In this document: positions 10,301 to 28,341 of the stretch, one piece after another | How positions within the stretch are numbered: position 1 is the first letter of the stretch | Layout: each line of letters starts with the position of its first letter | Origin: a virus | Taxonomy: Duplodnaviria; Heunggongvirae; Uroviricota; Caudoviricetes | IMG/VR virus record: IMGVR_UViG_3300010352_001127 | Reading direction: 5' to 3' (one strand) | DNA: 64,000 nucleotides | The notes under the pieces: generated by a model | What the model saw: only the letters and a program-made list of their open reading frames with translations | The model's database searches: none | Told to the model about the DNA's origin: nothing | Made by a program: the position numbers and the translations under genes

Positions 10301-13300
10301 CTGTACCAGATGTTCCTGATGTCCCGCCTGTTCCGCTTGTTCCACTACTTCCATCATGACCCGATGTTCCTGAAGTGCCACCCGTGCCTGAAGTACCACC
10401 TGTGCCACCAGTTCCACTAGTTCCACTACTTCCAGAAGTTCCACTAGTTCCACTACTTCCAGAAGTTCCGCTTGTTCCACTACTACCATCGTGGCCAGAA
10501 GTTCCACTAGTTCCGCTTGTTCCACTACTACCATCGTGGCCAGAAGTTCCACTAGTTCCAGCAGTTCCACTTGTGCCAGAAGTGCCACCTGTTCCGCTTG
10601 TACCACTACTTCCATCATGTCCAGATGTACCTGATGTTCCACTTGTTCCGGAAGTACCACCTGTTCCACTTGTACCACTACTTCCATCATGTCCAGATGT
10701 ACCTGATGTTCCACTTGTTCCTGCTGTACCTGATGTTCCACTTGTACCGCCTGTACCTGAAGTTCCACTACTACCTGATGTTCCACTCGTGCCACTAGTT
10801 CCCGAAGTACCACTACTACCTTGTTTTCCAGAAGTACCACTTGTACCACTAGTTCCACTACTTCCTGAAGTTCCACCAGTTCCAGAAGTACCACCTGTTC
10901 CATTTGTACCTGATGTACCACTTGTCCCGCTAGTTCCGCTAGTCCCACTACTACCATCATGTCCAGATGTTCCAGAAGTTCCAGAAGTACCACCTGTTCC
11001 GTTAGTTCCTGAAGTACCACCTGCTCCACTAGTTCCACTACTTCCATCATGACCTGAAGTTCCAGAAGTACCACTTGTCCCGCTAGTTCCGCTAGTCCCA
11101 CTACTACCATCATGTCCAGATGTTCCTGAAGTTCCAGAAGTACCACCTGTTCCACTAGTTCCACTACTTCCATCACGACCTGAAGTTCCTGAAGTGCCGC
11201 CTGTTCCGTTAGTTCCTGAAGTACCACCTGTTCCACTAGTTCCACTAGTTCCGCTTGTTCCACTACTACCACTAGTACCGCCAGTTCCGCCTGTACCAGA
11301 AGTACCACTTGTTCCCGATGTGCCACTGCTACCATCATGACCGGAAGTTCCACTAGTTCCACTTGTTCCACTAGTTCCACTACTACCATCATGTCCAGAA
11401 GTACCACTAGTTCCTGAAGTACCACCTGTTCCACTAGTTCCTGAAGTGCCGCCTGTTCCACTTGTACCACTGCTACCATCAACGCCCGAAGTTCCAGAAG
11501 TTCCTCCTGTACCTGATGTTCCATTTGTCCCACTTGTGCCTCCAGTGCCTGAAGTACCACTACTACCAGATGTGCCTGAAGTTCCTCCAGTACCACTAGT
11601 TCCACTACTACCTTGTTTTCCAGAAGTACCACTAGTTCCACTACTTCCAGAAGTTCCTGAAGTGCCAGAAGTTCCCCCAGTGCCACTTGTTCCTCCAATA
11701 CCACTAGTTCCACTACTTCCAGAAGTTCCTGAAGTGCCAGAAGTTCCCCCAGTGCCACTTGTTCCTCCAATACCACTAGTTCCACTACTTCCATCATAAC
11801 CACTTGTTCCCGAAGTTCCTCCCGTACCTGATGTTCCTGAAGTACCACCTGTACCACTAGTTCCACTACTTCCATCATGACCACTTGTTCCAGAAGTGCC
11901 ACTGCTACCACTTGTACCGCTTGTTCCGCCAGTACCAGAAGTGCCACCTGTTCCACTAGTTCCACTAGTACCGCTACTACCATCGTGTCCTGATGTACCA
12001 CTTGTTCCTGAAGTTCCTCCAGTACCACTAGTTCCGCTAGTTCCTGAAGTTCCACTACTTCCATCGTGACCAGAAGTACCACTAGTTCCACTAGTTCCGT
12101 TTGTTCCTGAAGTTCCACCAGTTCCACTACTTCCTGTCGCACCTGATGTTCCAGAGGTTCCGCCGGCACCGCTAGTTCCTGATGTACCGCCAGTTCCACT
12201 AGTTCCACTACTTCCTCCTGTACCTGATGTGCCACTAGTTCCAGAAGTTCCACTCGTACCACCAGTTCCACTAGTTCCACTACTACCTTGTTTACCGGAA
12301 GTACCACTTGTACCACTACTTCCAGAAGTTCCCGAAGTGCCTGAAGTTCCTCCAGTACCACTTGTTCCTCCAGTACCACTAGTTCCACTACTTCCTGTTG
12401 CGCCAGAAGTTCCAGATGTTCCGCCTGTTCCAGATGTACCACTAGTTCCACCTGTTCCAGATGTACCGCTACTCCCATCGTGACCTGAAGTACCTGATGT
12501 ACCTGAAGTACCACTTGTTCCTCCTGTTCCTGAAGTTCCTCCAGTTCCGCTAGTCCCACTACTTCCTGAAGTTCCGCTAGTCCCACTTGTTCCTGAAGTT
12601 CCACCTGTGCCATTTGTTCCACTAGTACCACTTGATCCTGATACTCCACTTGTTCCACTAGTTCCTCCAGTTCCACTAGTTCCACCTGTTCCACTAGTTC
12701 CAGAAGAACCAGACGTACCACTTGTTCCGCTAGTTCCCGAAGTACCACTACTACCTTTTGCGCCCGAAGTTCCACTAGTTCCAGATATACCACTAGTTCC
12801 ACCTGTACCTGATGTACCGCTCGTGCCGCCAGTTCCGCTAGTCCCGCTACTTCCACTTGTACCACTACTACCAGATGTTCCATTAGTTCCTGAAGTACCA
12901 CCAGTGCCATTCGTGCCACTCGTACCTCCAGTTCCTGAAGTACCACTACTACCTGATGTTCCACTAGTTCCACTACTTCCAGAAGTTCCACTAGTTCCAC
13001 TAGTTCCAGAAGTGCCACTGCTACCTGATGTACCGCTAGATCCAGAAGTACCACTAGTTCCTGATGTACCTGAAGTTCCACTTGTTCCTGAAGTACCGCC
13101 TGTTCCACTAGTACCGCTACTTCCTTGGGCTCCACTAGTTCCACTGGTTCCACTTGTACCCCCAGTACCGCTTGTTCCTGATGTCCCGCCTGTTCCACTA
13201 GTTCCACTACTACCTTGAGCCCCACTAGTTCCTGAAGTACCACTGCTACCTTGTGCTCCGCTGGTTCCACTTGTACCACCAGTTCCGCTAGTTCCACTAC

Positions 13301-16070
13301 TACCTTGAGCCCCGCTTGTTCCTGAAGTACCACCAGTACCACTCGTACCACTTGTACCACTTGTTCCCCCAGTACCACTAGTTCCACTACTACCTGATGT
13401 TCCACTAGTTCCACTACTTCCAGAAGTGCCTGAAGTTCCACCAGTTCCGCTTGTTCCAGATGAACCAGAAGTACCACTACTGCCCTGAGCTCCTGAAGTT
13501 CCAGATGTACCACCAGTCCCAGATGTTCCACTAGTTCCGCCAGTTCCGCTAGTTCCACTACTTCCTGAAGTACCTGATGTTCCACTACTACCAGATGTTC
13601 CCCCCGTACCTGAAGTTCCGCTAGATCCAGATGTTCCTCCTGACCCGCTTGTACCAGATGTTCCACTTGTACCGCCAGTTCCGCTAGTTCCACTACTACC
13701 TTGAGCTCCACTAGTTCCACTCGTGCCACTAGTTCCTGAAGTTCCACTACTACCTTGAGCTCCACTAGTTCCACTTGTTCCGCTAGATCCGCTAGTTCCA
13801 CTAGTACCGCTTGTGCCCGATGTACCTGAAGTTCCACTAGAACCACTTGTACCGCTGGTTCCACTGATACCAGTCAATCCACTAGTTCCACTTGTTCCTG
13901 AGGTGCCCCCAGTTCCGCTCGTACCGCTAGATCCAGAAGTACCACTACTACCAGAAGTACCTGAAGAACCTGATGTTCCGCTAGTTCCACTACTACCTGA
14001 TGTTCCACTTGTTCCAGACGTACCACTAGTCCCGCTAGTACCTGAAGTTCCACTAGTTCCACTGGATCCTGAAGTTCCCCCAGTGCCACTAGTTCCACTA
14101 CTACCTTGAGCTCCACTAGTTCCAGAAGTCCCACTACTACCTGATGTTCCACTTGTTCCAGAAGTACCACTACTACCCGATGTTCCAGATGTACCACCAG
14201 TCCCAGATGTTCCACTACTTCCACTAGTCCCTGAAGTTCCTGATGTTCCAGACGAACCACTCGTTCCTGATGTTCCTCCTGTACCTGATGTTCCTCCGGT
14301 TCCACTACTTCCTTGTGCTCCACTAGTTCCACTGGTTCCTGAAGTTCCGCTACTACCTGTTAAACCACTGGTTCCACTAGAACCACTAGTACCACTACTA
14401 CCACTAGTTCCTGATGTTCCGCTTGTACCACTGCTGCCAGATGTTCCACTAGTACCACTACTTCCTGAAGTTCCACTAGTACCACTAGTTCCTGATGTTC
14501 CGCTTGTACCACTGCTGCCAGATGTTCCACTAGTACCACTACTTCCTGAAGTTCCACTAGTTCCGCTACTACCACTAGTTCCAGATGTACCACTACTACC
14601 TTGTGCTCCACTAGTTCCACTACTACCAGTTTCTCCTGATGTTCCGCTGGTTCCGCTTGTACCTGAAGTTCCACTGGAACCAAAACCACTAGTACCAGAT
14701 GTTCCTAAACCAGCATCAGTATAAGTAAAAACAATAGGTTCGTCTAATATAAAATTGTTATTTGAATCTATCGGTGTAACATCTAATGTCCACCAAGATC
14801 CATTATCTGTTTTAGCATCTAAATAAAAAGTTGCAAATTTAGTAGAATCGTATTCATCGAATATTCTGATTCTAGACATTCCATTGGCATTAAGACTACT
14901 TAACCAAGAACTTATATCAACACCATCTTTACTTGTCTGACTTATGTATATTTGAGTTACTGAACCGTATACAGTATTATCAAATTTTAAATATCCAGAT
15001 AGAGGATTTGATGCTGTTGTTCCTGTTAAGAAATAATATGGTTGGCTATCACCTCCAAATATTCCAGATAAACCAGAAGATCCAGGAGAACCCATACCTG
15101 ATGTTCCACTAGTTCCACTTACACCACTACTTCCATAAAACCATCCATCAACACCAGATGATCCTGAAGTCCCACTACTTCCAGTTCCACCTTGAATATA
15201 AGATATTAAATACGATTTCCCGTTTGTAGCTGAACCTCCTCCTGATGCGTAAACTGAAAATCCAGTTATTTCATAAAAATTGCCACCTAATCCAAGATTA
15301 ACACTATTAATGGGAACATTATATATGCCTACAACTGAAAGATTTTCTCTCTCTTCTATTTTTAATACGCCTTGAATATTCCACGAACTTAACCAATTAT
15401 TTACAAGATCTCCATTCGCGTCCCATTTATTTATTCTTATATTTGTTACAGCCCCTAAATTTGAATTATTTATGTAGAATTTTCCATTCCCAGGAGTTGA
15501 TGTACTATTATCATAAACCCATTTACGCGTAGCTCCACCATAACCACCATCTATACCGCTACTTCCACTAGTTCCACTACTACCTCCGAGTCCTGATGTA
15601 CCACTTGATCCACTAGAGCCTGATGTACCTGAAGATCCTGCTTCGCCGCTACTTCCACTTGTTCCGGATGTACCACTTGTGCCACTTGTTCCTCTACCGC
15701 TTGTTCCGCTTGTGCCACCTGTTCCACTCGTACCTCCAGTTCCACTGGTTCCGCCAGTTCCGTCTCTGCCGCTGCTACCACTTGATCCATCTCTACCACT
15801 ACTACCACTTGTTCCATCAGCTCCGCTTGATCCAAAGAAAACACCATCAACACCCGATGTACCGTCTTTTCCAGATGTGCCACTAGTTCCACCTCCACCA
15901 CTTCCTGAAGATGTCGCACCAGTACATGGCAAATAATAAATATTTCCCCACTCGTCCTTTTGCCAAAGGCCGCAAAAACCATCTATAAAATCTTGACCTA
16001 AGTATATATGCCCCGGATCTGGATTACCAATTAGTTTCGGGTCTACTCTTTGGATTTTTTTGAAACTCAT
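7329..16070 (-). CDS. Giant collagen-like fibre protein (2913 aa): N-terminal ~470-aa duplicated beta-rich domain, ~2250 aa of (G-T/S-S/G)n collagen triplets, C-terminal ~190-aa globular domain
   Basis: Uninterrupted G-X-Y periodicity over about 6.7 kb with no Pro and with periodic charged triplets (GHD, GKQ, GND, GAQ, GRD). The conserved N-terminus is shared with the paralog at 1..1028. Codons GGN-ACT-AGT dominate. Confidence 0.8.
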   Translation of the reverse strand: MSFKKIQRVDPKLIGNPDPGHIYLGQDFIDGFCGLWQKDEWGNIYYLPCTGATSSGSGGGGTSGTSGKDGTSGVDGVFFGSSGADGTSGSSGRDGSSGSSGRDGTGGTSGTGGTSGTGGTSGTSGRGTSGTSGTSGTSGSSGEAGSSGTSGSSGSSGTSGLGGSSGTSGSSGIDGGYGGATRKWVYDNSTSTPGNGKFYINNSNLGAVTNIRINKWDANGDLVNNWLSSWNIQGVLKIEERENLSVVGIYNVPINSVNLGLGGNFYEITGFSVYASGGGSATNGKSYLISYIQGGTGSSGTSGSSGVDGWFYGSSGVSGTSGTSGMGSPGSSGLSGIFGGDSQPYYFLTGTTASNPLSGYLKFDNTVYGSVTQIYISQTSKDGVDISSWLSSLNANGMSRIRIFDEYDSTKFATFYLDAKTDNGSWWTLDVTPIDSNNNFILDEPIVFTYTDAGLGTSGTSGFGSSGTSGTSGTSGTSGETGSSGTSGAQGSSGTSGTSGSSGTSGTSGSSGTSGTSGSSGTSGTSGTSGTSGTSGSSGTSGTSGSSGTSGTSGTSGSSGTSGSSGTSGLTGSSGTSGTSGTSGAQGSSGTGGTSGTGGTSGTSGSSGTSGTSGTSGSSGTSGTGGTSGTSGSSGTSGTSGTSGSSGTSGTSGAQGSSGTSGTGGTSGSSGTSGTSGTSGTSGTSGTSGTSGSSGTSGTSGSSGTSGSSGTSGSSGTSGTGGTSGTSGTSGLTGISGTSGTSGSSGTSGTSGTSGTSGTSGSSGTSGTSGAQGSSGTSGTSGTSGTSGAQGSSGTSGTGGTSGTSGTSGSGGTSGSSGTSGTGGTSGSSGTSGTSGSSGTSGTGGTSGTSGTGGTSGTSGAQGSSGTSGSSGTSGTGGTSGTSGSSGTSGTSGSSGTSGTGGTSGTSGTSGTGGTSGTSGAQGSSGTSGTGGTSGTSGAQGSSGTSGTSGAQGSSGTSGTGGTSGTSGTGGTSGTSGTSGAQGSSGTSGTGGTSGTSGTSGTSGTSGTSGSSGTSGSSGTSGTSGTSGTSGSSGTSGTSGSSGTSGTGGTSGTNGTGGTSGTNGTSGSSGTSGSSGTSGTGGTSGTSGTGGTSGISGTSGTSGAKGSSGTSGTSGTSGTSGSSGTSGTGGTSGTGGTSGTSGVSGSSGTSGTNGTGGTSGTSGTSGTSGSSGTSGTGGTSGTGGTSGTSGTSGTSGHDGSSGTSGTGGTSGTSGTGGTSGTSGATGSSGTSGTGGTSGTGGTSGTSGTSGSSGTSGTSGKQGSSGTSGTGGTSGTSGTSGTSGTGGSSGTSGTGGTSGTSGAGGTSGTSGATGSSGTGGTSGTNGTSGTSGTSGHDGSSGTSGTSGTSGTGGTSGTSGTSGHDGSSGTSGTSGTGGTSGTGGTSGTSGSSGTSGTSGHDGSSGTSGTGGTSGTSGTGGTSGTSGYDGSSGTSGIGGTSGTGGTSGTSGTSGSSGTSGIGGTSGTGGTSGTSGTSGSSGTSGTSGKQGSSGTSGTGGTSGTSGSSGTSGTGGTSGTNGTSGTGGTSGTSGVDGSSGTSGTGGTSGTSGTGGTSGTSGTSGHDGSSGTSGTSGTSGTSGHDGSSGTSGTSGTSGTGGTGGTSGSSGTSGTSGTSGTGGTSGTNGTGGTSGTSGRDGSSGTSGTGGTSGTSGTSGHDGSSGTSGTSGTSGTSGTSGHDGSSGTSGAGGTSGTNGTGGTSGTSGTSGHDGSSGTSGTSGTSGTSGTNGTGGTSGTGGTSGSSGTSGTSGTSGKQGSSGTSGTSGTSGTSGSSGTSGTGGTSGTSGTAGTSGTSGTSGHDGSSGTSGTGGTSGTSGTSGTSGHDGSSGTSGTGGTSGTSGTAGTSGTSGHDGSSGTSGTSGTSGHDGSSGTSGTSGSSGTSGTSGSSGTSGTGGTGGTSGTGGTSGTSGHDGSSGTSGTGGTSGTSGTGGTSGTGGTSGTSGHDGSSGTSGTGGTSGTSGTGGTSGTSGHDGTSGTSGTSGTGGTSGTNGTGGTSGTGGTSGSSGTSGTNGTSGKQGSSGTSGTSGTSGTNGTSGTSGSSGTSGTSGHDGSSGTSGTGGTSGTSGHDGSSGTSGTGGTSGTSGTGGTSGTSGTSGTSGKQGSSGTSGTGGTSGTSGTSGTSGSSGTSGTGGTSGSSGTSGTSGTSGHDGSSGTSGTGGTSGTSGTGGTSGTSGTSGKQGSSGTSGTGGTSGTGGTSGLTGSSGTSGTGGTSGTNGTGGTSGTGGTSGTSGASGSSGTSGTSGKQGSSGTSGTGGTSGTSGTNGTSGSSGTSGTGGTSGTNGTGGTSGTSGNDGSSGTSGTGGTSGTNGTGGTSGTAGTSGHDGSSGTSGTGGTSGTSGHDGSSGTSGTSGTSGTSGHDGSSGTSGTSGTSGTSGTSGTSGTSGHDGSSGTSGTSGHDGTGGTSGTSGTGGTSGTSGHDGSSGTSGTGGTSGTSGHDGSSGTSGTGGTSGTNGTGGTSGTSGTSGKQGSSGTSGTGGTSGTNGTGGTSGTSGTSGHDGSSGTSGTSGNDGSSGTSGTSGNDGSSGTSGTSGTGGTSGTSGNDGSSGTSGTGGTSGTNGTGGTSGTSGTSGRQGSSGTSGTGGTSGTNGTGGTSGTSGNDGSSGTSGTSGHDGTGGTSGTGGTSGTSGTSGKQGSSGTSGTGGTSGTSGTAGITGSSGTSGTGGTSGTSGTGGTSGTSGTSGKQGSSGTSGTSGARGTSGTSGNDGTSGTSGVSGTSGTSGTSGITGSSGTSGIGVTYYYVNDIPPFSWATAWASQSKIDLSTTHGVTGGNGTSGFSVKVNCYYYMDHLMDTGTTSQMTAIDYSLAAMREYRFNVFVDQTGSYTNYVTDTKTVQHSGYWVKYNSETPSPGRHASIDTQGQIGPNDIDAEALIYSSKPYLLLKNNLRSATGWDPSPSYKLQLKYTVDVIEYSYVSANNTEI
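7900..14700. repeat. Collagen-triplet nonamer-based repeat region containing perfect in-frame tandem duplications (99 bp at 10171-10403, 72 bp at 11627-11793, 81 bp at 14401-14562)
   Basis: Direct comparison of the sequence lines shows exact 99-, 72- and 81-nt units repeated 2-2.3 times. All are multiples of 9 nt, so Gly phase is preserved. Confidence 0.7.
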
Positions 16071-16076
16071 TTAAAA

Positions 16077-16120
16077 AGAAAAACGGTTTTTTATACCTAT
16101 ATATAAAAAACCGTTTTTCT
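16077..16120 (-). terminator. Perfect 16-bp-arm hairpin (AGAAAAACGGTTTTTT / AAAAAACCGTTTTTCT) followed by a U-run on the minus-strand transcript. Likely a terminator of the pncA-nadR operon; its loop carries the TATATATA promoter-like box for the giant fibre gene
   Basis: Arms 16077-16092 and 16105-16120 are exact reverse complements. Loop ATACCTATATAT. On the minus strand the hairpin is followed by TTTTTAA then ATG. Confidence 0.55.
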
Positions 16121-16147: not shown

Positions 16148-16738
16148 TTATCTTTGCATATCAAAGAAAATTTTATATTTAAATATTTCATCGTCAGATA
16201 GAAAAATATCCAGATCCATTGAATTTATAATCATAACGCCGTCTTTAGCCATATCTTCGACGATGGGAGTCATTTGATCGAAAAAACGTGTTGCATCTAC
16301 AATCAAAAAAGTTTTGAAAAATACAGAGCAATCTTTGGCCGTTTCTTTTACATTGAAATCTCCTGGAAGTCCAACTACATAAACTTCTTTTACATCGTTT
16401 TTATCTAAAAAATCATAAAGATTTAAACCATCTTCATTAACTCCAACAAAACCGCTCAAATCTATGGTTTTCTCACCTTTTGTGAAAATAGTAGTTTCTT
16501 TTAAATCTAAATCTGGATGAAAATCTGCGCCTTCAGTATTTTGAATACAATGAGGAGGAATTTCATCAGTGAAAGATTTATGATTGACTGGATGCCAATC
16601 TCTTGATGCTACAGTTAAATCAAATTTATCTTTGATTTCGTTAATTATAGGAATAATTCTATCTCCGAAAGGAACAGGATATGTTCCACCGGGCATAAAA
16701 TCCTTTTGAACATCAACAATAAATAAAGCTCTTTTCAT
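16148..16738 (-). CDS. pncA: PncA-like isochorismatase-family protein (nicotinamidase/pyrazinamidase homolog); the expected nucleophile Cys appears to be replaced by Asn
   Basis: Motifs ALFIVDVQKDFMPGG, DWHPVNH, PPHC, GADFHPDLD, SGFVGVNEDG and VYVVGLPGDFNVKETAKD are co-linear with PncA (…VVGIATDHCVRQTAED…); D and K of the triad and the metal-binding His/Asp residues are conserved. Confidence 0.6.
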   Translation of the reverse strand: MKRALFIVDVQKDFMPGGTYPVPFGDRIIPIINEIKDKFDLTVASRDWHPVNHKSFTDEIPPHCIQNTEGADFHPDLDLKETTIFTKGEKTIDLSGFVGVNEDGLNLYDFLDKNDVKEVYVVGLPGDFNVKETAKDCSVFFKTFLIVDATRFFDQMTPIVEDMAKDGVMIINSMDLDIFLSDDEIFKYKIFFDMQR

Positions 16739-16739
16739 A

Positions 16740-17105
16740 TTATTCTAATCTAATAACACCACTATCAACTTCAAATGTTTTCTTTTCTACCAGAGTGTCT
16801 GGCAAAACAAAAGTTTTTCCATCCTGTAAAACCATAACAGTTCCTTTCTTTGGAAAATGAACAGGATTTTTGCATGTTTCGCTATGGAATAAAAAGGAAT
16901 TAAATGCTGGTTTTAATGAAAGACGTCCATTGGTTTTCAAATAACCCATGTATTCGTGCCCTTCAATTTCATAAACATATAAGGTGATCCCATTCACGAC
17001 AACATGTCTTTTAGCATTCATTTCTTTATCAATATCAACTTTCTGTTTACAACCAGTAAACAGAAAAAGACACATTATTACTAATAATCCTAAAAATTTT
17101 TTCAT
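16740..17105 (-). CDS. Lipoprotein (signal peptide + lipobox LFTGC)
   Basis: MKKFLGLLVIMCLFLFTGCKQK N-terminus. Confidence 0.5.
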   Translation of the reverse strand: MKKFLGLLVIMCLFLFTGCKQKVDIDKEMNAKRHVVVNGITLYVYEIEGHEYMGYLKTNGRLSLKPAFNSFLFHSETCKNPVHFPKKGTVMVLQDGKTFVLPDTLVEKKTFEVDSGVIRLE

Positions 17106-17125
17106 TTTACAAATATATTAATTTT

Positions 17126-18106
17126 TTAATAGTTAAAAAAATTCTTTTTAACTATATCTATAGCTTTTTGTGTTCTTTCTTCCCAATCAGTTCCACTCAC
17201 AACCTCCATTTTTAAATTTTTAGATTTAAAAAAGTTGTATTGGAAATCACCAAGATCATCTCTTTTTTCTTTTGAAAGGCGAGTTCCATCTTGTATATAA
17301 GGGGCATCTTTATCTAAGAAAATGTATAAATCGAATTTGTTTGCTTCTTCAATCCAATTATCGAATACGGGTTCAAGATCGAAGAAAAATTTAGAATAAG
17401 ATTTTGTTGTATTTAAATTTGTGTCGCTAAATAATATCCTATTAGCGTGTTTTATTTCTTCGATTATGCCACTAGCATGAGCTTTTCCAACATTCATGAT
17501 ATCTTTTATAGTTGTATTGTCTGAATGTTCGATTATATCTCTACCCCACTCTTTTACATAAGATGTTTGAAAAACTTTTGACAATTTTTCTGTAAGAACT
17601 GTTTTTCCAGTACTTTCTGTTCCACACAGACATATTTTCTTAACAAAATAAGGTCTTGCTACAAGTGATATATAATCCCAATACTTGAAAGGATTTTCTC
17701 TTATCTGAGTGCCACTTATTGGAACAGTTTCACGTTTTTCGTCAAATATTACATATCCACAATTCATATACTCAGCAACATACTCTGCGTAAGGTTCTGA
17801 AGCAAACACAACATCTACATTATCTAAAGTTTTACTTATGTGATCAGCCCATAGTTTAGATACTTCCCTATCAGAAACAGAAGTATATGGAAGTTTTACA
17901 TCGGTATATCTTATAATAACTTTATAATCATCCCTATATTTATCCGTAAGCCAGTGAAGTCTCACGTAACCTGGTATGGTTTCTTTTTCGTCATTCATAC
18001 ATAAAAGAACATATAAGAGATCACATTTCTCTTTAGCAAAATTTATAAGTGCTTCGTGACCTAAAGAAATTGGTTCTGCTTTTAAAATTATCAGTCCTCT
18101 TATCAT
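17126..18106 (-). CDS. nadR: NadR-type bifunctional NMN adenylyltransferase / ribosylnicotinamide kinase (no HTH domain)
   Basis: Nucleotidyltransferase (H/T)xGH-type motif (GLIILKAEPISLGHEALI) near the N-terminus. Later P-loop LCGTESTGKT (GxESxGKS/T of the NadR RNK domain). 326 aa. Confidence 0.7.
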   Translation of the reverse strand: MIRGLIILKAEPISLGHEALINFAKEKCDLLYVLLCMNDEKETIPGYVRLHWLTDKYRDDYKVIIRYTDVKLPYTSVSDREVSKLWADHISKTLDNVDVVFASEPYAEYVAEYMNCGYVIFDEKRETVPISGTQIRENPFKYWDYISLVARPYFVKKICLCGTESTGKTVLTEKLSKVFQTSYVKEWGRDIIEHSDNTTIKDIMNVGKAHASGIIEEIKHANRILFSDTNLNTTKSYSKFFFDLEPVFDNWIEEANKFDLYIFLDKDAPYIQDGTRLSKEKRDDLGDFQYNFFKSKNLKMEVVSGTDWEERTQKAIDIVKKNFFNY

Positions 18107-18942
18107 TCAAATATTTTTTTTATATTTTTGAAGTTGTTATTTATAATCAGATTATAATCATAATATTTCTTGGATTCATTCATTTTAATTTCATTAATAT
18201 TTCTTTTCTTATTCCACAAATAACTTGATTTTATTTCAAAGACTATGTTTGTATTTTTTATTCTATAGTCTATATAATAATTATGTTCTTTTCCGCTATC
18301 ATCAAAATAACTTATACGAGGTCCTCTTTCAATCAAATCAAATTTACCGATGGATTCAACAAATTTTAAAAATTTTAATTCATAACTGCTTTGATAATCT
18401 ATGCCATTATATTGTTTTATTCTTATTCTTCCCCATCCACTATTAGGTTTTCTTCTCCCTTCTTTAAAAGCTTTAATGGCTGCATCACTCATTCTTTTTT
18501 TAATATCATCAGATAGTTTAGTCCCCTTTCTTTTTTCTGCCATTTTTATCCATCCTTGTTTTTCTTTTATTTTTTGTTTAGAAGATTCCCAAGTAAAAGG
18601 GTTTCCGTTCTCATTCAACCATTTTTTAAGCCCTATTTTAGCATTATTGTTTGGTTTTCCAAAATTTCCGTTTCTATCTCCTTTATTTTGACATTTGGTA
18701 CAAAAATGTTCATTTTTATCTGGTTTTAGATCTCTTATTCTTCTTTCGAATATTACACCACAATCATCACATTTTACTTTTATAAATTTTATTCTATAAT
18801 CTCTTTTTGATTTTAGTAATGACCAATGAACTAAAAAAGGTTCGTTTATATTTGGTCTATAACCGAGTGTTTTTTTCCATCTGTCGGGTTGAGTGTAATG
18901 TGTTAAGACAACTTCAACGTTTTCATATTCTTTTATATACAT
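18103..18942 (-). CDS. Freestanding homing-endonuclease-like protein: N-terminal Zn-ribbon (KVKCDDCG…CTKCQ) + C-terminal PD-(D/E)XK-like domain
   Basis: The N-terminal CxxC…CxxC segment is paralogous to those of 42922..44574 and 46691..47581. C-terminal …IDYRIKNTNIVFEIKSSY… resembles a D…E.K nuclease core. ATGA overlap with nadR. Confidence 0.4.
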   Translation of the reverse strand: MYIKEYENVEVVLTHYTQPDRWKKTLGYRPNINEPFLVHWSLLKSKRDYRIKFIKVKCDDCGVIFERRIRDLKPDKNEHFCTKCQNKGDRNGNFGKPNNNAKIGLKKWLNENGNPFTWESSKQKIKEKQGWIKMAEKRKGTKLSDDIKKRMSDAAIKAFKEGRRKPNSGWGRIRIKQYNGIDYQSSYELKFLKFVESIGKFDLIERGPRISYFDDSGKEHNYYIDYRIKNTNIVFEIKSSYLWNKKRNINEIKMNESKKYYDYNLIINNNFKNIKKIFE

Positions 18943-18956
18943 AAGAACTTTTTATT

Positions 18957-18971
18957 CTTATATATTAAAAA
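18957..18971 (-). promoter_or_regulatory. Promoter-like box CTTATATATTAAAAA upstream of 18103..18942
   Basis: Motif family member, 15 nt upstream of the ATG. Confidence 0.45.
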
Positions 18972-19008
18972 CTAAAAATCACTTTTAACCTTTTCATTGT
19001 GGTCATTT

Positions 19009-19434
19009 TCATTCACTCCAATCTTCTTCACCATACGGATCCAAATCATTAATTATTCTTTTATTGAGTTTATATTCTCTTTTATGTTCTCTCTTTTTTT
19101 CTTTCCATTCACTATAACTTCCACAATGATGATGTCTTATCATATTACATATATCTGGGAAACTTCTAACTACTTTAGTTGGCAAACTATATATATTTAT
19201 ATCTGATGATGCACAATTATCTAATAGATGTAATATATAATCAATAACATAATCTTCATTTTGATCTTTATAATGTTTTAAAAATTTTATAATGTCATCG
19301 ACATTCTTCCAGCTTAACTCGATTTTTTTTAAATCTAATATAGCTTGTGCGGCTTCTTCGCGTGTTAAATCTGTTCGATAACCATATTTATCGAAATCTT
19401 TAAAATCTTCAAATTTAGATAAATTACTTATCAT
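19009..19434 (-). CDS. Hypothetical protein ending in the DPYGEEDW motif
   Basis: C-terminus …NDLDPYGEEDWSE* (motif at 19018-19041). Confidence 0.45.
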   Translation of the reverse strand: MISNLSKFEDFKDFDKYGYRTDLTREEAAQAILDLKKIELSWKNVDDIIKFLKHYKDQNEDYVIDYILHLLDNCASSDINIYSLPTKVVRSFPDICNMIRHHHCGSYSEWKEKKREHKREYKLNKRIINDLDPYGEEDWSE

Positions 19435-19437
19435 ATG

Positions 19438-19758
19438 TCATTTAACTTTTTTAGTTTCATAAATATAACACTCATACCATCTTGAAGATACTCCATATTC
19501 ACATAATACATTTTCAAGAGATTGTTTGGGGAATTTAGTAAAAGATCCTTTTATTTCCAAGAACCAAGAATCTGGCACATATTTTTCTTTTATCCATTCT
19601 CTTGGATCTTTTTCCCATCCATTTAATATATTATACCAACCTTCACTTTTATATTTATTTGTGAGTTCTCCAACGAGAATTTCTTCGCCATTATTATGTT
19701 TAAGAATTATAATATCTTCAATTTCAATTTCGTCAAAACTTACTTTTTTCAATTTCAT
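19438..19758 (-). CDS. Hypothetical protein
   Basis: ORF in an operon context, with 4-nt overlaps on both sides. Confidence 0.4.
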   Translation of the reverse strand: MKLKKVSFDEIEIEDIIILKHNNGEEILVGELTNKYKSEGWYNILNGWEKDPREWIKEKYVPDSWFLEIKGSFTKFPKQSLENVLCEYGVSSRWYECYIYETKKVK

Positions 19759-20324
19759 TGTTGTTTTTTATATATTTTTGTCCAATTAATTAACCCGTAG
19801 ACGGCTACAAAAGTTATCACAATATATTCTAAAGATACTAAATATATTCCTTTTGAATAGAATAACCACACGCTTAACATATCCAATAATATCCATAGAA
19901 ACCATCCATATAAATATTTTTTAGATAGAAATACCACAGCAAATATACTCATTGTTGTGACAATAGCATCTAGTAAAGCAAATTGTGGTTGAAAGAATCC
20001 CAATACATAACCTCCTAATAAACAAAGAATTAGTATAACAATTCCAGTTATTATTACATTTTTTAATGAAGATATTTTTATCTTTTTACCTATATCTCTT
20101 CCCCAATATGTCCAACCGTATATTGAAACAATCGTAAAAAAGACTTGAAGCGCAACTTGTCCAAACAATTGATTTTTTAAAAAAAGTATAAAGAAAAATA
20201 TCTGTCCGATTATACCAACAGGCCAATTCCAAATTTTGTTTCTAGCAGCCAAAACTACTGCAGCAAAAGAAAACAATGTTCCAAATAATTCTAAATAAGA
20301 AAGTGTATATCCTAGTAATACCAT
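19755..20324 (-). CDS. pnuC: PnuC-family nicotinamide riboside transporter
   Basis: 189-aa polytopic membrane protein with Trp-rich TM helices typical of PnuC. Genomic association with nadR and pncA. Confidence 0.6.
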   Translation of the reverse strand: MVLLGYTLSYLELFGTLFSFAAVVLAARNKIWNWPVGIIGQIFFFILFLKNQLFGQVALQVFFTIVSIYGWTYWGRDIGKKIKISSLKNVIITGIVILILCLLGGYVLGFFQPQFALLDAIVTTMSIFAVVFLSKKYLYGWFLWILLDMLSVWLFYSKGIYLVSLEYIVITFVAVYGLINWTKIYKKQQ

Positions 20325-20779
20325 TATTTATTTATCTTAATATACTTACCAATAATAGCTGATTTATCCAACACATGTCCATCAATTTCTTTCAAAAGTT
20401 CGGCTTTAGTATATCCTTCTTTGTTCAAAAAACAATCTAAAGCAAATATCTTAAAGAAATATCTATGAACACCATTTGGAGGGCATGGACCTTTATAATC
20501 AAATTGTTTATAGTCATTTTTTCCAAATAAAATTGGTGGTTGTGAATCTCCTTTTGTAAAGTGTTCATTAAACATAGTTGTAGTTGGTGGAATATTATAT
20601 ACAATCCAATGTACCCAATCTCCAACTGGAGCGTCGGGATCATCAACTAATAAAGCTAGACTAACAGTCGCTTTTGGAAAACCACTCCATTCTAGCTGAG
20701 GTGATACATTTACTCCCTCGCAAGTAAATTTGGAAGGAATAAATTCACCATGTCTAAACGCGTTACTTCTTATTTCCAT
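20324..20779 (-). CDS. PEBP-family protein (YbhB/YbcL-like)
   Basis: LVDDPDAP…W.HW and GPCPP.G.HRY motifs of bacterial phosphatidylethanolamine-binding proteins. Confidence 0.7.
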   Translation of the reverse strand: MEIRSNAFRHGEFIPSKFTCEGVNVSPQLEWSGFPKATVSLALLVDDPDAPVGDWVHWIVYNIPPTTTMFNEHFTKGDSQPPILFGKNDYKQFDYKGPCPPNGVHRYFFKIFALDCFLNKEGYTKAELLKEIDGHVLDKSAIIGKYIKINK

Positions 20780-22847
20780 CTTTTTCTTTTAACATTATTT
20801 TTAATTGAGCAAAACAATTAAATGGTACTCCTACAAAATAAAGTGGTTGATCTCCACTCCAATTTAATTGACCGCTCGCGAAATATTTTTGATTTGTTAT
20901 ATTATTAAAATAGATATTAAAATCTATCCAGTTCCAACTAACACCCAATTTTCCATTTAAAGTGTAATAAGAATCAATAGTTTCGGCTAAATCCGTCCCC
21001 AACCATTTTGTATATCCGATGATACTTCCATCTTGATATCTACAAGATAAACCTACTACAAACCATTTATATTTATAATGACCTTCTATGTTACCTATCC
21101 ATTTTGGAGATAATATTGGTTTATTTATTTGATTATTAGATTGTTTTATACCACAATCATTATACGAACCATTTACACCAATTCCTAAACCAAAATCCCA
21201 TTTGTATTTGAAATCTGCTTCAATTCCTCTTCTATAACTCTGTTTTACGTTATCGTGTAATGGAACTCCACTCATACCTATTTTACCATTTAAAACAATT
21301 TCATTACTAAAATTCATATGGAAAAAATTGAAATTTATATAAAAATTTTTTTCTACTACACGAATACCAAGTTCATTATCTCGCGATTGTTCGGAATTAA
21401 GATTGTTATAAACAGCGTTACCAAGAGTATCACATGGTAAGTAGTTATACCCATTTAATACATCATTTCTTGATGGTTCACGATTATTTACACCATAACT
21501 ATAATAAAACACAGTTCTATTTAAATTGTAATCTATTCCTAAATCATAATTTATAAAATTCCAATGTAAATCTGGCATAACAACATTATAATGAGGAGTA
21601 AAGTTCTCATCATAAGAAACATCGCCTTTATATTTAAAATCTGTATATCTATATTGAACATCGCCAAAAAGATTCAGATCTTTCCAAACATTATATTTAA
21701 CTTTCAAATAACTACTTATTTCATTTCTATATCCAGTGTTTGTGTATTGATATCCATAAATATCATTATTCCCTATATGTTCTCTATCATATGTAAAACC
21801 GTGAGTTCCTAAATCGAAATAAAATCCTTTTATATTTTTTGAAAAATTTAAATATCCACCATACCAATTAGATTTAAAAGTATATTTGTCTATACCATAA
21901 TTAATATTATTCTGTAAGAAATTCTGTAAATCAAAAGTATAATAGCCGTGAAGATAATTATAATAAAGAGCATAATTCAATTTCGTTTCTTTATTGAAAT
22001 TTATTATGTGGTGAAATTGAACGTGTGTCTGAGCAAAATTATCTTGTTCTTTGTCTGTCGCACCGTTTGTTTTCCTATCTTCTCGAACTTTTTCCAACGG
22101 AACGCCCAACCACGCTAACTGATTATTTTGGGCTCCTATAAAAGATACTATTTTGAATGTATGTTTTTTTACATTAAAATATGAATTTAAAAATAAACTC
22201 TGTCCTTTATTACTGGAATGATATTTATATCCTTTTGTTTCTATATCTGATAATTGAAAGTAATAACCGCCACGTTTAAAATTTTGATCGACCTCTGCTC
22301 CAATATTAAAACTATTGAAAGATCCGTATCCAAATTTAGCCGTCGCTTTATCATAAGTAGGGAAATGGGAATCAAAATTTAAACCACCTCCAAAACAAGA
22401 TGATCCATTTTTTGTTAAACTATTACCTCTTTGTATTTGAATCAAATCTAATGAATTAAAGAAATCTGGATAGTTTGAAAAATACAATCCTTGATCTTCG
22501 GGCTCATTCATTGGCACTCCGTTTAGAGTGAAATTAATACGAGTTTGATCAATTCCTCTCATACGAATATAAGAATATCCATAGGGGCTACCAGCATCAG
22601 AATAAGATGTGATAGAGGGTGTTGTAATAAGAATATCAGAAGGCTCTTGCCCGTGATATTTAAAATTTATTTCGTTCTTATTTAAATTTGTAAAAGTAAT
22701 AGGAGTAAGATGATTCGCCTTGTATGGCGCTGTAATATTAACCTCTTTTAATTCTATCGTGTCCTTACCAATATGATAAATAGTGTCTTGACTATAACCC
22801 CCGATAGCGAAGATAAATAGAATAATAATAAATAATGTTCTTTTCAT
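20763..22847 (-). CDS. TonB-dependent outer-membrane receptor (signal peptide, plug, ~22-strand barrel; 694 aa)
   Basis: N-terminal signal peptide plus TonB-box/plug region (LKEVNITA…, SYIRMRGIDQTRINFTLNGVPMNEPEDQGLYFSNYPDF). Long Tyr/Asn/Gly-rich beta-barrel body. Overlaps the PEBP gene by 17 nt (operon). Confidence 0.65.
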   Translation of the reverse strand: MKRTLFIIILFIFAIGGYSQDTIYHIGKDTIELKEVNITAPYKANHLTPITFTNLNKNEINFKYHGQEPSDILITTPSITSYSDAGSPYGYSYIRMRGIDQTRINFTLNGVPMNEPEDQGLYFSNYPDFFNSLDLIQIQRGNSLTKNGSSCFGGGLNFDSHFPTYDKATAKFGYGSFNSFNIGAEVDQNFKRGGYYFQLSDIETKGYKYHSSNKGQSLFLNSYFNVKKHTFKIVSFIGAQNNQLAWLGVPLEKVREDRKTNGATDKEQDNFAQTHVQFHHIINFNKETKLNYALYYNYLHGYYTFDLQNFLQNNINYGIDKYTFKSNWYGGYLNFSKNIKGFYFDLGTHGFTYDREHIGNNDIYGYQYTNTGYRNEISSYLKVKYNVWKDLNLFGDVQYRYTDFKYKGDVSYDENFTPHYNVVMPDLHWNFINYDLGIDYNLNRTVFYYSYGVNNREPSRNDVLNGYNYLPCDTLGNAVYNNLNSEQSRDNELGIRVVEKNFYINFNFFHMNFSNEIVLNGKIGMSGVPLHDNVKQSYRRGIEADFKYKWDFGLGIGVNGSYNDCGIKQSNNQINKPILSPKWIGNIEGHYKYKWFVVGLSCRYQDGSIIGYTKWLGTDLAETIDSYYTLNGKLGVSWNWIDFNIYFNNITNQKYFASGQLNWSGDQPLYFVGVPFNCFAQLKIMLKEKDGNKK

Positions 22848-23362
22848 TTGTGATATTTTTCGTTAAATTTAAAACTCCATTCTGGATTTGGCCTGTATTT
22901 AGTGTTTAGAAAATATTTATATACATATTTCCAATCCTTTTTTGGATTAAATCCAGCCTTGTCTTCCCAAAGAGAATTGAAATATGGTTTTTTGTCATAA
23001 AATCCAAAACTTCCTTTAGCGTCAGAAATTTCTGGATTATCATTCACGTACTTAAAATATATACCATCTTCTTCGAATTGTTTCATATACTTTTCAATCT
23101 CGTTTTTATAAGAAGATGTGAATATAAACAATATCATATCACGGCGGTTCTTTGTAAGATATTGTAAAGTTTCTTTGGCATAAGGATAGTAATTTATTCT
23201 AAATTCACCTTCACCTTTTTCAGATTTACGATAATCTGGCTCGGATATAACTCCATGAATATCAAAGCAATGATAGGTTTCATACCACTGCCTTTCTTTG
23301 GCGTGTTTAAACATTTTATCCATCCAAACAAGTAAAGATGGTTTATAGCAAGGATTTAGCAT
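22844..23362 (-). CDS. Hypothetical protein, possibly HAD-like 5'(3')-deoxyribonucleotidase-like with an altered motif I (FDIHGVI instead of DxDG)
   Basis: Weak resemblance only. First gene of the TonB-receptor operon; TATATA box at about 23374-23388. Confidence 0.3.
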   Translation of the reverse strand: MLNPCYKPSLLVWMDKMFKHAKERQWYETYHCFDIHGVISEPDYRKSEKGEGEFRINYYPYAKETLQYLTKNRRDMILFIFTSSYKNEIEKYMKQFEEDGIYFKYVNDNPEISDAKGSFGFYDKKPYFNSLWEDKAGFNPKKDWKYVYKYFLNTKYRPNPEWSFKFNEKYHK

Positions 23363-23499
23363 ATAAATATTTTTTTATATAACTTTTTTATTTTTAAGCC
23401 ATATAATTCGAACAAAATTAAATATTTTTTTATTAATAAAAAAATTTTGTAACCGATAAGAAAAATTAGCGTCTAATCTAGAAAATAAAAACATAAAAT

Positions 23500-27090: not shown

Positions 27091-27104
27091 CTATATATTA
27101 AAAA
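27091..27104 (-). promoter_or_regulatory. Promoter-like box CTATATATTAAAAA upstream of 26838..27068 (overlaps the stop codon of the 27098 gene)
   Basis: Motif family member. Confidence 0.45.
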
Positions 27105-28303
27105 TTTTTTTTGAGTATGTACTCACCAGTTTCTTCGTCTTTCATCATATCGTCTTTCAAATATATTTTTGAACCCAATCTGACAAATTCGTGTTCGGGT
27201 GTTACATAATCATCTCTATATTTTAATGGAACAGCATCATTTTTGTGTACATAGACATTATCATATTCCGACCAAATCAGAAAATCACGATAAACCATTC
27301 TACCCAAATAATCTATTCCGAAATTATAATTACTATCTACTAGTGGTTCTCCGTTAGCCATAACCAAAGCTAACCAACCAGTTTTATTAAATTTTTCAAC
27401 GTCACTTGTAAGAATCGCTTCTTCTGGATTATAAAATTGTAAAGTATCTACATATGGATAATGTTCGTGATTAATTTTATTCAGATTTACTGTCATTATA
27501 ATTTTTTCTTCTTTCCCTTTATTCACAACTGGAATAACACTTCCTCCATACATTTGTTTACTTTTATAAATATAATCATTTCTTATTGCATAATCTATAA
27601 AAAGTTTAATTTGCCAATCATAAGTGGTGTATATCCTATCCATAAAAATTCTTCCAGCCGGCTCATCCAGATACCATAAATTGGCTCTTCCGTATATCTT
27701 ATCTTCATTTGGATCTTTCAGTATTAACATTTTCATTTTATCGGGATTCTTCTCGTATAAAGAAAAGAATATTTTAGAATCATCATATCTCATACAAGAT
27801 CTCTGTAGTTGACCCGTGGCTTCCCCACTATACATTCTCCCACTATAATATTTAATAATTTCTTTTCCTTCAATTACAGAAAAATTTTCTACCTCACCTT
27901 TTAAAGCTACTTTATAATTCTTTATAAATTCTTCTATTTGCTGTTGAGTGAATTTATTTCCAAAAATTCTAGTTATAAACCTAGACAATCTCTGTTTTTG
28001 ACGATAATGCACCCAGCAATAATTTATACCTTCTTGATCTTTTCCTATAGATTTATATTTATCTAATATTTGTTTTGCTTTATTTGATGCTGTATAAGAA
28101 ACAAAATCATCCTTTTCTTCTTCCACATCCACAAAAGAAATATCATATTTTTTATTATCATATTGAATATTCATTAGTTCATCTAGAATGGGATCTTCTG
28201 GCATATCGGCCAAAACTTCCTTAAAAGTGTGAGAAAAAATCATGGGTAGATTATTCTCATCTTTCGATTCATTCAAAAATGATTTAAAACCGTATAATAT
28301 CAT
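27098..28303 (-). CDS. Family-X paralog B; start revised to ATG 28303 (the ORF-track start at 28315 is TTG)
   Basis: RSCMRYDD…KNPDKMKMLILK…GRANLWYLDEPAGRIFMDRIYT…YPYVDTLQFY; promoter-like box 28329-28340. Confidence 0.55.
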   Translation of the reverse strand: MILYGFKSFLNESKDENNLPMIFSHTFKEVLADMPEDPILDELMNIQYDNKKYDISFVDVEEEKDDFVSYTASNKAKQILDKYKSIGKDQEGINYCWVHYRQKQRLSRFITRIFGNKFTQQQIEEFIKNYKVALKGEVENFSVIEGKEIIKYYSGRMYSGEATGQLQRSCMRYDDSKIFFSLYEKNPDKMKMLILKDPNEDKIYGRANLWYLDEPAGRIFMDRIYTTYDWQIKLFIDYAIRNDYIYKSKQMYGGSVIPVVNKGKEEKIIMTVNLNKINHEHYPYVDTLQFYNPEEAILTSDVEKFNKTGWLALVMANGEPLVDSNYNFGIDYLGRMVYRDFLIWSEYDNVYVHKNDAVPLKYRDDYVTPEHEFVRLGSKIYLKDDMMKDEETGEYILKKNF

Positions 28304-28341
28304 TAATAAAATCAATTATTTTCTGTTTCTATATATAAAAT

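Follow-up and report, generated by a model that had tools for sequence, protein, structure and literature searches.

A predicted TonB-dependent receptor, PnuC and NadR as a putative NAD precursor import and NAD+ synthesis line in a huge phage of Bacteroidota

The DNA considered here, the window, is the whole 64,000-nucleotide (64-kb) stretch from the viral record IMGVR_UViG_3300010352_001127. A run of genes on its minus strand encodes homologues of the transporter PnuC, the bifunctional enzyme NadR and the nicotinamidase PncA, and this raises the question of how, and for what purpose, a phage would build nicotinamide adenine dinucleotide (NAD+) from an imported precursor. An earlier note on this DNA had named these three genes, together with Prs and PPK2 further along, as a salvage set that might restore NAD+ against NAD+-depleting defence. 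Family and structure matches confirm that all five genes are real and lie on the minus strand where they had been placed. That note overlooked the distinctive component of the array, an adjacent gene for a TonB-dependent receptor (TBDR), which sits 439 nucleotides (nt) upstream of PnuC with a single PEBP gene between and falls just outside the interval then covered. We consider it likely, with considerable room for doubt, that TBDR, PnuC and NadR form a host-derived three-tier NAD-precursor line that keeps NAD+ up in cells infected by a huge phage of Bacteroidota, i.e., a Bacteroidota-type, three-compartment version of the system known as NARP3.

PnuC and a bifunctional NadR without a helix-turn-helix (HTH) domain form a consistent route by which nicotinamide riboside (NR) would become NAD+, as had been proposed. 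The suggestion that this would be an undescribed variant has been overtaken by the literature. In 2024, Osterman et al. reported that phage NadR is usually in an operon with PnuC, as a possible further NAD+ reconstitution pathway (bioRxiv 10.1101/2024.02.11.579819), and clusters with pnuC and nadR are listed in a survey of jumbo phages, where NAD synthesis genes were found to be common and were read as an independent NAD supply (PMC11662467). The route was then validated in August 2026, in Science Advances, as NARP3, which consists of Bas30_86 (NadR-like) and Bas30_87 (PnuC-like) and occurs in Escherichia phage TrudiRoth and T5-like Salmonella phages (PMC13464706). It imports NR, makes NAD+ and rescues phages from Sir2-HerA and DSR1 in E. 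coli (PMC13464706). Thus the PnuC-NadR phage route is already published, and the conserved coupling to a TBDR is the distinctive element here. The three genes are as follows (aa, amino acids; NMNAT, nicotinamide mononucleotide adenylyltransferase).

20763-22847, minus strand: TBDR, 694 aa, with Pfam Plug and barrel domains
19755-20324, minus strand: PnuC (PF04973, TIGR01528)
17126-18106, minus strand: NadR, 326 aa, without HTH, composed of NMNAT and an AAA_28 kinase (Pfam, NCBIfam, PHROG, solved structures)

The receptor has the three parts by which a TonB-dependent transporter is recognized, namely a signal peptide, a plug and a C-terminal beta-barrel. The N-terminal signal peptide is MKRTLFIIILFIFAIGGYSQ, the Plug match (PF07715, 4.9e-09) spans residues 49-154, and the TonB_dep_Rec_b-barrel match (PF00593, 5.5e-20) spans residues 258-650. 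A DTIxLxEVxIxA segment that is conserved in the TBDR alignment is likely the TonB box. A phmmer search of PDB sequences gave no match, and a profile search of the PDB returned distant matches to siderophore, haem and PQQ receptors only. There was no match in NCBIfam at E<=0.01, hence none to SusC/RagA. A SusC/RagA-type receptor (~1000 aa, a carboxypeptidase-regulatory-like domain, a SusD partner) was considered and rejected, since this protein is of 694 aa, consists of Plug and barrel alone, and is followed by PEBP and PnuC genes.

We propose that the TBDR is an outer-membrane gate for an NAD precursor, and this comes from its neighbors in other genomes. Loci were gathered by TBDR similarity alone, 81 of them bacterial and 55 viral, the latter being IMG/VR contigs of up to 483 kb and four GenBank phages. 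The bacterial relatives, at ~42% identity, are from Bacteroidota. NadR lies within 5 kb of the receptor in 75 of the 81 bacterial loci, PnuC in 62 and one or the other in 76; the commonest order is TBDR-PnuC-NadR (47 times), and stop and start codons of neighbors often overlap. For example, the operon of Mucilaginibacter phyllosphaerae runs NrtR-Nudix-NAMPT-TBDR-PnuC-NadR-Prs, and that of a metagenome-assembled Marinilabiliaceae genome (locus L020, on a 4.87-Mb contig) runs NrtR-TBDR-PnuC-NadR with overlapping reading frames. The bacterial operon is linked to the regulator NrtR in a minority of loci. The linkage is similar in the viruses, where NadR is found within 5 kb of the receptor in 49 of the 55 loci, PnuC in 40 and either in 50. 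Neighbor-joining trees, of 132 and 108 sequences, place the viral TBDRs in three clades that contain viral members only (21, 16 and 13 sequences); NadR groups alike, and the window falls with the uncultured phage LR756501. Because of these surveys and trees, the trio appears to be old and vertically inherited in these phages, and derived from a Bacteroidota NAD salvage operon. Our literature searches found no paper that links a TonB-dependent transporter to pnuC/nadR or to NR, and none that describes this bacterial operon or assigns the receptor family to NAD precursors. Variants without PnuC occur as well. The viral loci L093, L097-L103 and L124 have PncB and PncA upstream, then TBDR and NadR with no detectable PnuC between, and several Chitinophagaceae loci have TBDR-NadR without PnuC, where another inner-membrane carrier may serve.

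The window PnuC is predicted to be an inner-membrane NR importer. It matches PF04973 over the full profile (1e-44), phrog_1880 (4.6e-27) and the Neisseria mucosa PnuC structure 4QTN (1e-05), and scores 91.9 bits on TIGR01528 against a cutoff of 42.45. The family core W106, D160, W182, W185, W228 and K230 is retained (N. mucosa numbering, taken from PMC13464706 and mapped via the 4QTN alignment). NadR has an N-terminal NMNAT and a C-terminal ribosylnicotinamide kinase. It matches AAA_28 (1.8e-21) and CTP_transf_like in Pfam, phrog_3462 (4.5e-74), TIGR01526 (6e-53) and NF005988; the last match covers profile positions 67-406 of 411, and because it starts at position 67 the protein is taken to lack the HTH domain. 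Among solved NadR structures, 8x7f aligns over the full length with both domains, and the alignments to 9x6f and 1lw7 start at the N-terminus and end at residue ~282 of 326. The earlier note had left the catalytic residues to be checked by alignment, and the outcome is mixed. The Walker A (GTESTGKT), DTN and LID (QDGTR) motifs of the kinase are all intact, as is NMNAT motif 2 (ISGTQIR). NMNAT motif 1 is atypical, which is taken up below, and we regard NMNAT activity of the window NadR as probable but not certain.

Put together, these parts suggest the following line. Host Sec and the beta-barrel assembly machinery would insert the TBDR in the outer membrane, where host TonB-ExbBD would energize it. 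The receptor would capture scarce external NR, or a close NAD precursor, and concentrate it in the periplasm. PnuC, by homology, would pass NR across the inner membrane. The NadR kinase domain would then trap NR as nicotinamide mononucleotide (NMN), and the NMNAT domain would make NAD+, at a cost of two molecules of adenosine triphosphate (ATP) and no phosphoribosyl pyrophosphate (PRPP). The cassette would have been captured independently from a Bacteroidota TBDR-PnuC-NadR operon, with vertical inheritance in huge phages afterwards. Sustained NAD+ in the infected cell would also blunt NAD+-depleting defences. Such an anti-defence role is plausible, because in enterobacterial phages a gene pair of the same architecture replenishes the NAD+ that Sir2-HerA and DSR1 deplete.

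The trio is embedded in an array of ten minus-strand open reading frames (ORFs) that runs from ~23.4 kb to ~16.1 kb, in which consecutive genes share 1-17 nt or lie at most 66 nt apart. PnuC and NadR share one strand and one terminator-bounded array, with 1.65 kb and three inserted ORFs between them; they are directly adjacent in the phage LR745206 (locus L002) and in L003, and nearly so in LR756501. The other features of the array are listed here.

23363-23499, minus strand: AT-rich divergent intergenic region of 137 bp, likely promoter region
22844-23362, minus strand: HAD-fold protein, 172 aa, first gene of the array
20324-20779, minus strand: PEBP/YbhB protein, 151 aa (PF01161, TIGR00481)
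19438-19758 and 19009-19434, minus strand: two ORFs without family match (106 aa and 141 aa)
18103-18942, minus strand: endonuclease-like protein, 279 aa (phrog_15137)
16740-17105, minus strand: predicted lipoprotein, 121 aa (signal peptide and lipobox read from the sequence)
16148-16738, minus strand: homologue of the nicotinamidase PncA (Pfam Isochorismatase, solved relatives)
16077-16120, minus strand: hairpin with a 20-bp stem and a T run (terminator scan), a putative bidirectional intrinsic terminator closing the cassette

By its gene content the window is phage DNA, because it is syntenic with LR756501 and because it also encodes head-tail adaptor-like, UvsW-like (intein-bearing) and UvsY-like genes. 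Its best protein-level matches are the uncultured phages LR756501/LR756503 (735 kb), followed by LR745206 (634 kb), LR756502 (642 kb) and the Prevotella Lak phages; at the nucleotide level, 24 kb of the window compared with the phage collection by megablast gave no match. The synteny with LR756501, at 55-74% protein identity, reaches from an M28-like peptidase through the NAD genes and a collagen-like giant gene to the PPK2-Prs pair. These phages belong to the 'Mahaphage' clade, for which Bacteroidetes are the predicted hosts (PMC7162821), and the matches place the window as part of a huge Mahaphage-clade phage of Bacteroidota. Three relatives recur below: L001, which is LR756501; L089, an IMG/VR sister phage; and L140, the nearest relative of the window phage. 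The window and L140 are 72% identical in TBDR, 76% in PnuC and 87% in the HAD-like protein. The ratios of nonsynonymous to synonymous substitution (dN/dS) between the two are 0.065 for the HAD-like gene, 0.14 for PnuC, 0.17 for TBDR, 0.27 for the PncA-like gene, 0.38 for the lipoprotein and 0.60 for the 141-aa ORF, and these figures are rough since dS is ~1 in all pairs. TBDR and PnuC are thus under purifying selection, and the transport genes are the best-conserved part of the module in this sub-lineage.

The PncA-like protein had been counted in the salvage set, and a role as nicotinamidase does not survive alignment. It does belong to the family, with a Pfam Isochorismatase match (3e-11) and the Pyrococcus horikoshii nicotinamidase 1ILW as its best solved relative (1.8e-30); on the NCBIfam nicotinamidase model it scores 90.6 bits, under the cutoff of 174. 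Against three solved nicotinamidases, its Asn129 aligns with the catalytic Cys, and GLP replaces GLA, the cis-peptide motif of the oxyanion hole. All eight PncA homologues in related viral loci have GLA and the Cys, and the 120 best database homologues have Cys at this position in 117 cases, Asn in two and Ser in one. Asp9 and Lys87 are retained, as are D47, H49, H53 and H63, the metal ligands of the DWHPxNH...HC site. The protein is predicted to be inactive as an amidase: no deamidation of nicotinamide is expected because the nucleophile Cys, on which the accepted thioester mechanism of nicotinamidases relies, is lost. A 199-aa ORF elsewhere in the window (46113-46712, plus strand) has motifs reminiscent of isochorismatase-like cysteine hydrolases (ILVIVDVQKQF ... 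LVGGASEEC); as a candidate second protein of this kind it had no Pfam match at E<=0.01.

The sister phages suggest where the PncA homologue comes from. In L001 and L089 the order is PncB, HAD-like, a 91-aa ORF, NadE, TBDR, a zinc-finger-like ORF, a second HAD, PnuC, (endonuclease), NadR, lipoprotein and a PncA with its Cys, so that these loci appear to combine the Preiss-Handler branch with the NR branch. PncB, NadE and NAMPT were found neither in the 64-kb window nor in the 10 kb beyond its start. The PncA-like protein is predicted to be a relic of a lost Preiss-Handler branch, and the window module would be a trimmed form, with PncB and NadE gone and the PncA homologue catalytically dead. 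L140 encodes a second Asn-bearing PncA-like protein (P0151), whose gene has lost the metal site as well. Enzymes have been lost step by step in the sub-lineage of the window and L140, and host enzymes could take over the phosphorylation and adenylylation of NR.

Several observations weigh against the proposed line of TBDR, PnuC and NadR. The substrate of the TBDR is read from its gene neighborhood alone. A phage-made outer-membrane transporter requires time and host machinery before it is useful, and nothing in the data here links the cassette to any defence system. In PnuC, the polar NR contacts of the N. mucosa protein and of Bas30_87 are not conserved (S, V, D and I in the first case; S, a gap and D in the second), and because of this the substrate is assigned from context and the TIGR01528 score. 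The PnuCs linked to the operon in Bacteroidota show the same pattern. In NadR, NMNAT motif 1 reads LKAEPISLGH against the consensus GKFxPxHxGH, with three near-invariant positions changed. The changes of G to L or M and of F to A recur in three other viral NadRs; that of the first His to Ser is found in the window alone in an alignment of 112 sequences, which comprises two references, the window itself and 109 homologues taken from the loci. Four viral sequences have Gln at this position, and the active Bas30_86 has Thr. Finally, a deletion in L140 has removed NadR and created a fusion of endonuclease residues 1-66 with the C-terminal 20 residues of NadR; TBDR and PnuC are still in place. NadR is therefore dispensable in the L140 lineage, and the module may be eroding.

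Could the module then be wholly or partly non-functional in this phage, a remnant of an ancestral toolkit? The absence of PncB and NadE, both at the syntenic position and elsewhere in the 64 kb, the PncA without nucleophile and oxyanion-hole Ala, the atypical motif 1 of NadR, the loss of NadR and further decay of the PncA-like gene in L140, and the mobile-element-like ORFs inserted between PnuC and NadR would all fit such decay. However, every ORF of the window is intact, and the dN/dS of TBDR and PnuC (0.14-0.17) speaks for constraint. NadR is as similar to its counterparts in outgroup phages (62-63%) as are TBDR (55-66%) and PnuC (61-63%), and its kinase motifs are perfect; two of its motif 1 changes recur in viral NadRs, and the active Bas30_86 has a Thr at the position of the first His. 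We consider this reading improbable as a whole; a partial erosion of the module in this lineage is to be taken seriously. A more serious contender keeps the same machinery and changes its purpose to general metabolic support in long infections, with any effect on NADase defences incidental. Huge phages, whose infection cycles are long and whose NAD(P)-dependent enzymes are numerous, would replenish the NAD+ pool of the host from precursors outside the cell. The broad NAD toolkit of the sister phages (PncA, PncB, NadE, NadR, PnuC and TBDR) looks like general biosynthetic capacity, NAD synthesis genes are common in jumbo phages and read as an independent supply (PMC11662467), the window encodes an NAD-dependent epimerase/dehydratase, and the bacterial source operon is an ordinary salvage operon, linked to NrtR in a minority of loci. 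As the sole purpose this sits less well with the rescue of phages from Sir2-HerA and DSR1 by the two-gene core in E. coli, and we give it somewhat under an even chance. A general NAD+ supply for a long, demanding infection fits the data as well as counter-defence does; the two purposes are not mutually exclusive, and sequence does not separate them.

The remaining alternatives concern what is transported. TonB-dependent receptors are common phage receptors, so a role of the TBDR in surface remodelling, e.g., superinfection exclusion, is conceivable, and carbohydrate uptake is another NAD-unrelated role, as the homologues in Mar_Mega_1 and LR745206 have been annotated 'SusC' and read as carbohydrate importers (PMC9723777). 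L002, followed directly by PnuC and NadR, is the only TBDR-family match in LR745206 in our phage search and thus very probably the gene so annotated. The window protein, at 694 aa, has no SusC/RagA signature, no N-terminal carboxypeptidase-regulatory domain and no SusD neighbor. Moreover, the family has NadR or PnuC at its side in 76 of the 81 bacterial loci and in 50 of the 55 viral ones, often with overlapping stop and start codons, and some of the bacterial operons start with the NAD regulator NrtR. A role apart from NAD is very unlikely on these grounds. The transporter pair might instead import another compound, such as thiamine (as in PnuT), nicotinic-acid riboside or NMN. The PnuC family includes PnuT (thiamine) and PnuX (riboflavin), Bacteroides pairs PnuT with a TonB-dependent receptor, and the NR-contact residues of characterized PnuCs are not conserved in the window protein. 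Yet TIGR01528, the equivalog model of the PnuC NR transporter, is matched above its curated cutoff, the invariable partner is a NadR with an NR-kinase domain and not a thiamine kinase, and NrtR, NAMPT and Prs are co-located in bacteria, with no thiamine pyrophosphate (TPP) or other riboswitch found. We give such a substrate hardly any credence. On balance, we favor a TBDR-PnuC-NadR line that takes up NR or a close precursor.

How would such a cassette be controlled? The 137-bp region 23363-23499 separates the start of the HAD-like gene (23362, minus strand) from that of a PspC-domain gene (23500, plus strand). It contains TAATTTTG, which resembles the Bacteroidetes -7 element (TAnnTTTG), and is likely the promoter region of the cassette. 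A scan for sigma-70-type promoters was not informative (54 sites against 49.5 expected). At the other end, the same hairpin follows the PncA-like gene in L140, and Rfam gave only spurious miRNA-like matches on it. No Rfam family reached its gathering score in a riboswitch search of the window, and neither a TPP nor any other riboswitch was found in the cassette. In bacteria, paired palindromes TGTGT-N7-ACACA lie upstream of six nrtR-containing loci (five distinct operons) and are candidate NrtR operators in this Bacteroidota group; the pairs, ~52 bp apart, precede the nrtR-TBDR-pnuC-nadR operons of L007/L020, L010, L011, L016 and L040. The window has no exact site of this kind, its matches with two mismatches are unconvincing, and neither the 64 kb nor the 10 kb beyond the window start encodes an NrtR homologue. 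Control of the phage cassette by host NrtR and ADP-ribose was considered and is unsupported, as no NrtR-box-type palindrome occurs in the window. Since the cassette has no NrtR gene, NrtR-type operator or riboswitch, it is presumably regulated by the phage's own programme.

The HAD-like protein has only a weak NIF match in Pfam, and a sequence search of the PDB gave no match. In its AlphaFold2 model (pLDDT 81.5), Foldseek against the PDB gives weak best matches to BT_0820 and KdsC-type HAD phosphatases, and D34, H36, G37, S83/S84, K125 and D134, with a D-x-H-G motif, are invariant in 36 homologues. The fold search supports a capless HAD fold of generic type only. The HAD-like gene runs 4 nt into the start of the TBDR gene, and the sister phages place it between PncB and NadE. 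The PEBP/YbhB protein (PF01161, 1.1e-40; TIGR00481, 3.4e-36) has no evident link to NAD and occupies a variable slot between TBDR and PnuC: PEBP is absent there in the sister phages, which have an 80-aa zinc-finger-like ORF and a 205-aa HAD (L001, L089) or a 75-aa ORF (L140).

Between PnuC and NadR, the 106-aa and 141-aa ORFs (19009-19758) have no Pfam or NCBIfam match and are absent at the corresponding position in L001 and L089; L140 has a homologue of the 141-aa ORF at 34% identity. The 141-aa ORF ends in DPYGEEDW and its L140 homologue in DPYGEEDWSE. A D-P-Y-(G/S)-E-E-x-W motif occurs five times on the minus strand (19018-19041, 45681-45704, 49421-49444, 61404-61427 and 61668-61691), always at the very N- or C-terminus, in four small ORFs that are not otherwise related, and may be a shared terminal tag. 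The 279-aa gene next to NadR matches phrog_15137 'endonuclease' (7.5e-08) and, weakly, DUF7836 and DUF7487. Homologues lie immediately upstream of NadR in L089, L091, L093, L098, L101 and L115 (seven loci with the window), and L001 keeps a 27-aa remnant (12367-12447). The gene is probably that of a homing endonuclease, free-standing and associated with nadR, and DUF7487-bearing paralogues are found at 42922-44574 and 46691-47581. The predicted lipoprotein, with the lipobox LFTGC, is kept between NadR and PncA in L001, L089 and L140 at 54-57% identity; an exhaustive database search yielded six representatives, two of them large repeat proteins, and its single-sequence AlphaFold2 model (pLDDT 44) is unusable.

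The other two genes of the proposed salvage set lie apart from the array.

35793-36653, minus strand: PPK2 (PF03976, 6.8e-65)
36656-37597, minus strand: Prs (three Prs domains)

The pair is ~18 kb from the cassette, at a position that is conserved (~18-20 kb away); in LR756501 the two genes are ~0.5 kb apart, with 74% identity. Both genes are real, and neither is needed for the NR route. Prs had been named as the supplier of PRPP; it is not part of this route because the conversion of NR to NAD+ uses ATP and not PRPP, and neither NAMPT nor PncB was found in the window or the 10 kb beyond its start. Prs could feed PncB in the sister phages. Of 84 tabulated loci, 83 of which are bacterial, 10 have Prs in the same operon, where it follows NadR and is accompanied by NAMPT in nearly every case. 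Regeneration of nucleotides from polyphosphate is a possible role of PPK2, which is tied to the cassette by conserved position alone. PPK2 has no PHROG family and matches 16 of 50,697 phage records, and a weaker homologue lies ~5 kb upstream of the TBDR in LR745206.

Several further features of the window were observed. Next to the cassette, 7329-16070 (minus strand) is a 2913-aa ORF whose sequence is nearly all collagen-like G-x-x triplets (GTSGTSGSSG...), apart from N- and C-terminal domains that are free of the repeat. It has ~50% GC against ~30% in the rest of the window, and its homologues come after the NAD cassette in LR756501, L089 and L140. Four genes (23803-25257, 27098-28315, 28342-29298 and 29344-30762) form a paralogue set of ~30% mutual identity without a Pfam match. 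They are interleaved with M28-like peptidase paralogues (25277-26773 and 30891-32039), a layout kept in LR756501 and L140. A second set without a Pfam match lies at 40330-41385 and 41404-42432, and the two sets span 318-484 aa. From 61828-62865 onward, the plus strand encodes the UvsW-like DEAD/ResIII helicase, with an intein (Hint and Intein_splicing matches) right after the DEC motif; the ORF as listed stops inside the intein region. Genes for an RCC1-repeat protein (2716-3900), the NAD-dependent epimerase/dehydratase (3946-4830), a radical SAM protein (4842-5768) and an unknown product (5756-6442) form one cluster that adjoins structural-looking genes and could be a glycan-modification set.

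We hold it rather more probable than its opposite that Mahaphage-clade phages, including the 735-kb genome and the Lak phages, install their own NAD-precursor TonB-dependent transporter, i.e., a full two-membrane import line coupled to NAD+ synthesis, and that the Bacteroidota receptor family, previously unassigned and in part NrtR-linked, consists of vitamin-B3 or NR importers. If true, a megaphage gene formerly read as a sugar importer would be reassigned, and this would be the first pathway-level substrate prediction that we have found for a virus-encoded outer-membrane transporter. It also points to an uncharacterized family of NAD-precursor transporters in Bacteroidota, including abundant gut and environmental bacteria, and would widen the NARP3 concept, beyond T5-like phages of enterobacteria, to include the largest phages known. 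In addition, the full toolkit of the 735-kb phage, the trimmed form with a dead PncA in the window and the loss of NadR in L140 provide a natural series for studying selection on phage NAD metabolism.

Among known systems, NARP3 is like the window in having a PnuC-family transporter and an HTH-less NadR with NMNAT and NR-kinase domains, on one strand and in one phage operon, and in its predicted chemistry from NR via NMN to NAD+. The Bas30_86 structure 9x6f matches the window NadR at 1.9e-31. The differences are in the details and in the setting. The NR-binding N45, Q94 and N180 of Bas30_87 are replaced in the window PnuC by S, a gap and D. The window has a TBDR upstream, which the T5-like NARP3 locus does not, and three ORFs between PnuC and NadR, whereas NARP3 is an adjacent two-gene module. 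The hosts of NARP3 phages are Enterobacteriaceae; the host phylum of the window is Bacteroidota, where function is predicted from the genes. NARP2 (NadV/NatV of phage KVP40) starts from nicotinamide and PRPP via NAMPT, and the window has no NAMPT. The NAD clusters of jumbo phages resemble the window in their clustered NAD+ synthesis genes, with pnuC and nadR together in some, and the reports on them mention no TonB-dependent receptor, which the window has (PMC11662467). The megaphage 'SusC' was read as a carbohydrate importer (PMC9723777), whereas its family is without SusC hallmarks and has NadR and PnuC adjacent in LR745206.

The chromosomal operons of Bacteroidota (Mucilaginibacter phyllosphaerae, Flammeovirga, Marinilabiliaceae) share the three genes of the window, their order and orientation, and the overlapping frames. 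Identity to the Mucilaginibacter operon is 41% for TBDR, 38% for PnuC and 40% for NadR. Unlike the bacterial operon, the phage copy is without an NrtR gene, an NrtR-box palindrome, NAMPT and an adjacent Prs, and it has phage-specific inserts, namely the HAD-like, PEBP, endonuclease-like and lipoprotein genes and the dead PncA. Set against NARP3, the window NadR is ~40% identical to Bacteroidota NadR and identical to Bas30_86 at eight of the 16 residues mutated or highlighted there; its differences follow the Bacteroidota consensus except at F11, which is Ala. Because this residue pattern and the ~40% identity point to Bacteroidota, we suggest that the cassette was captured there, independently of NARP3.

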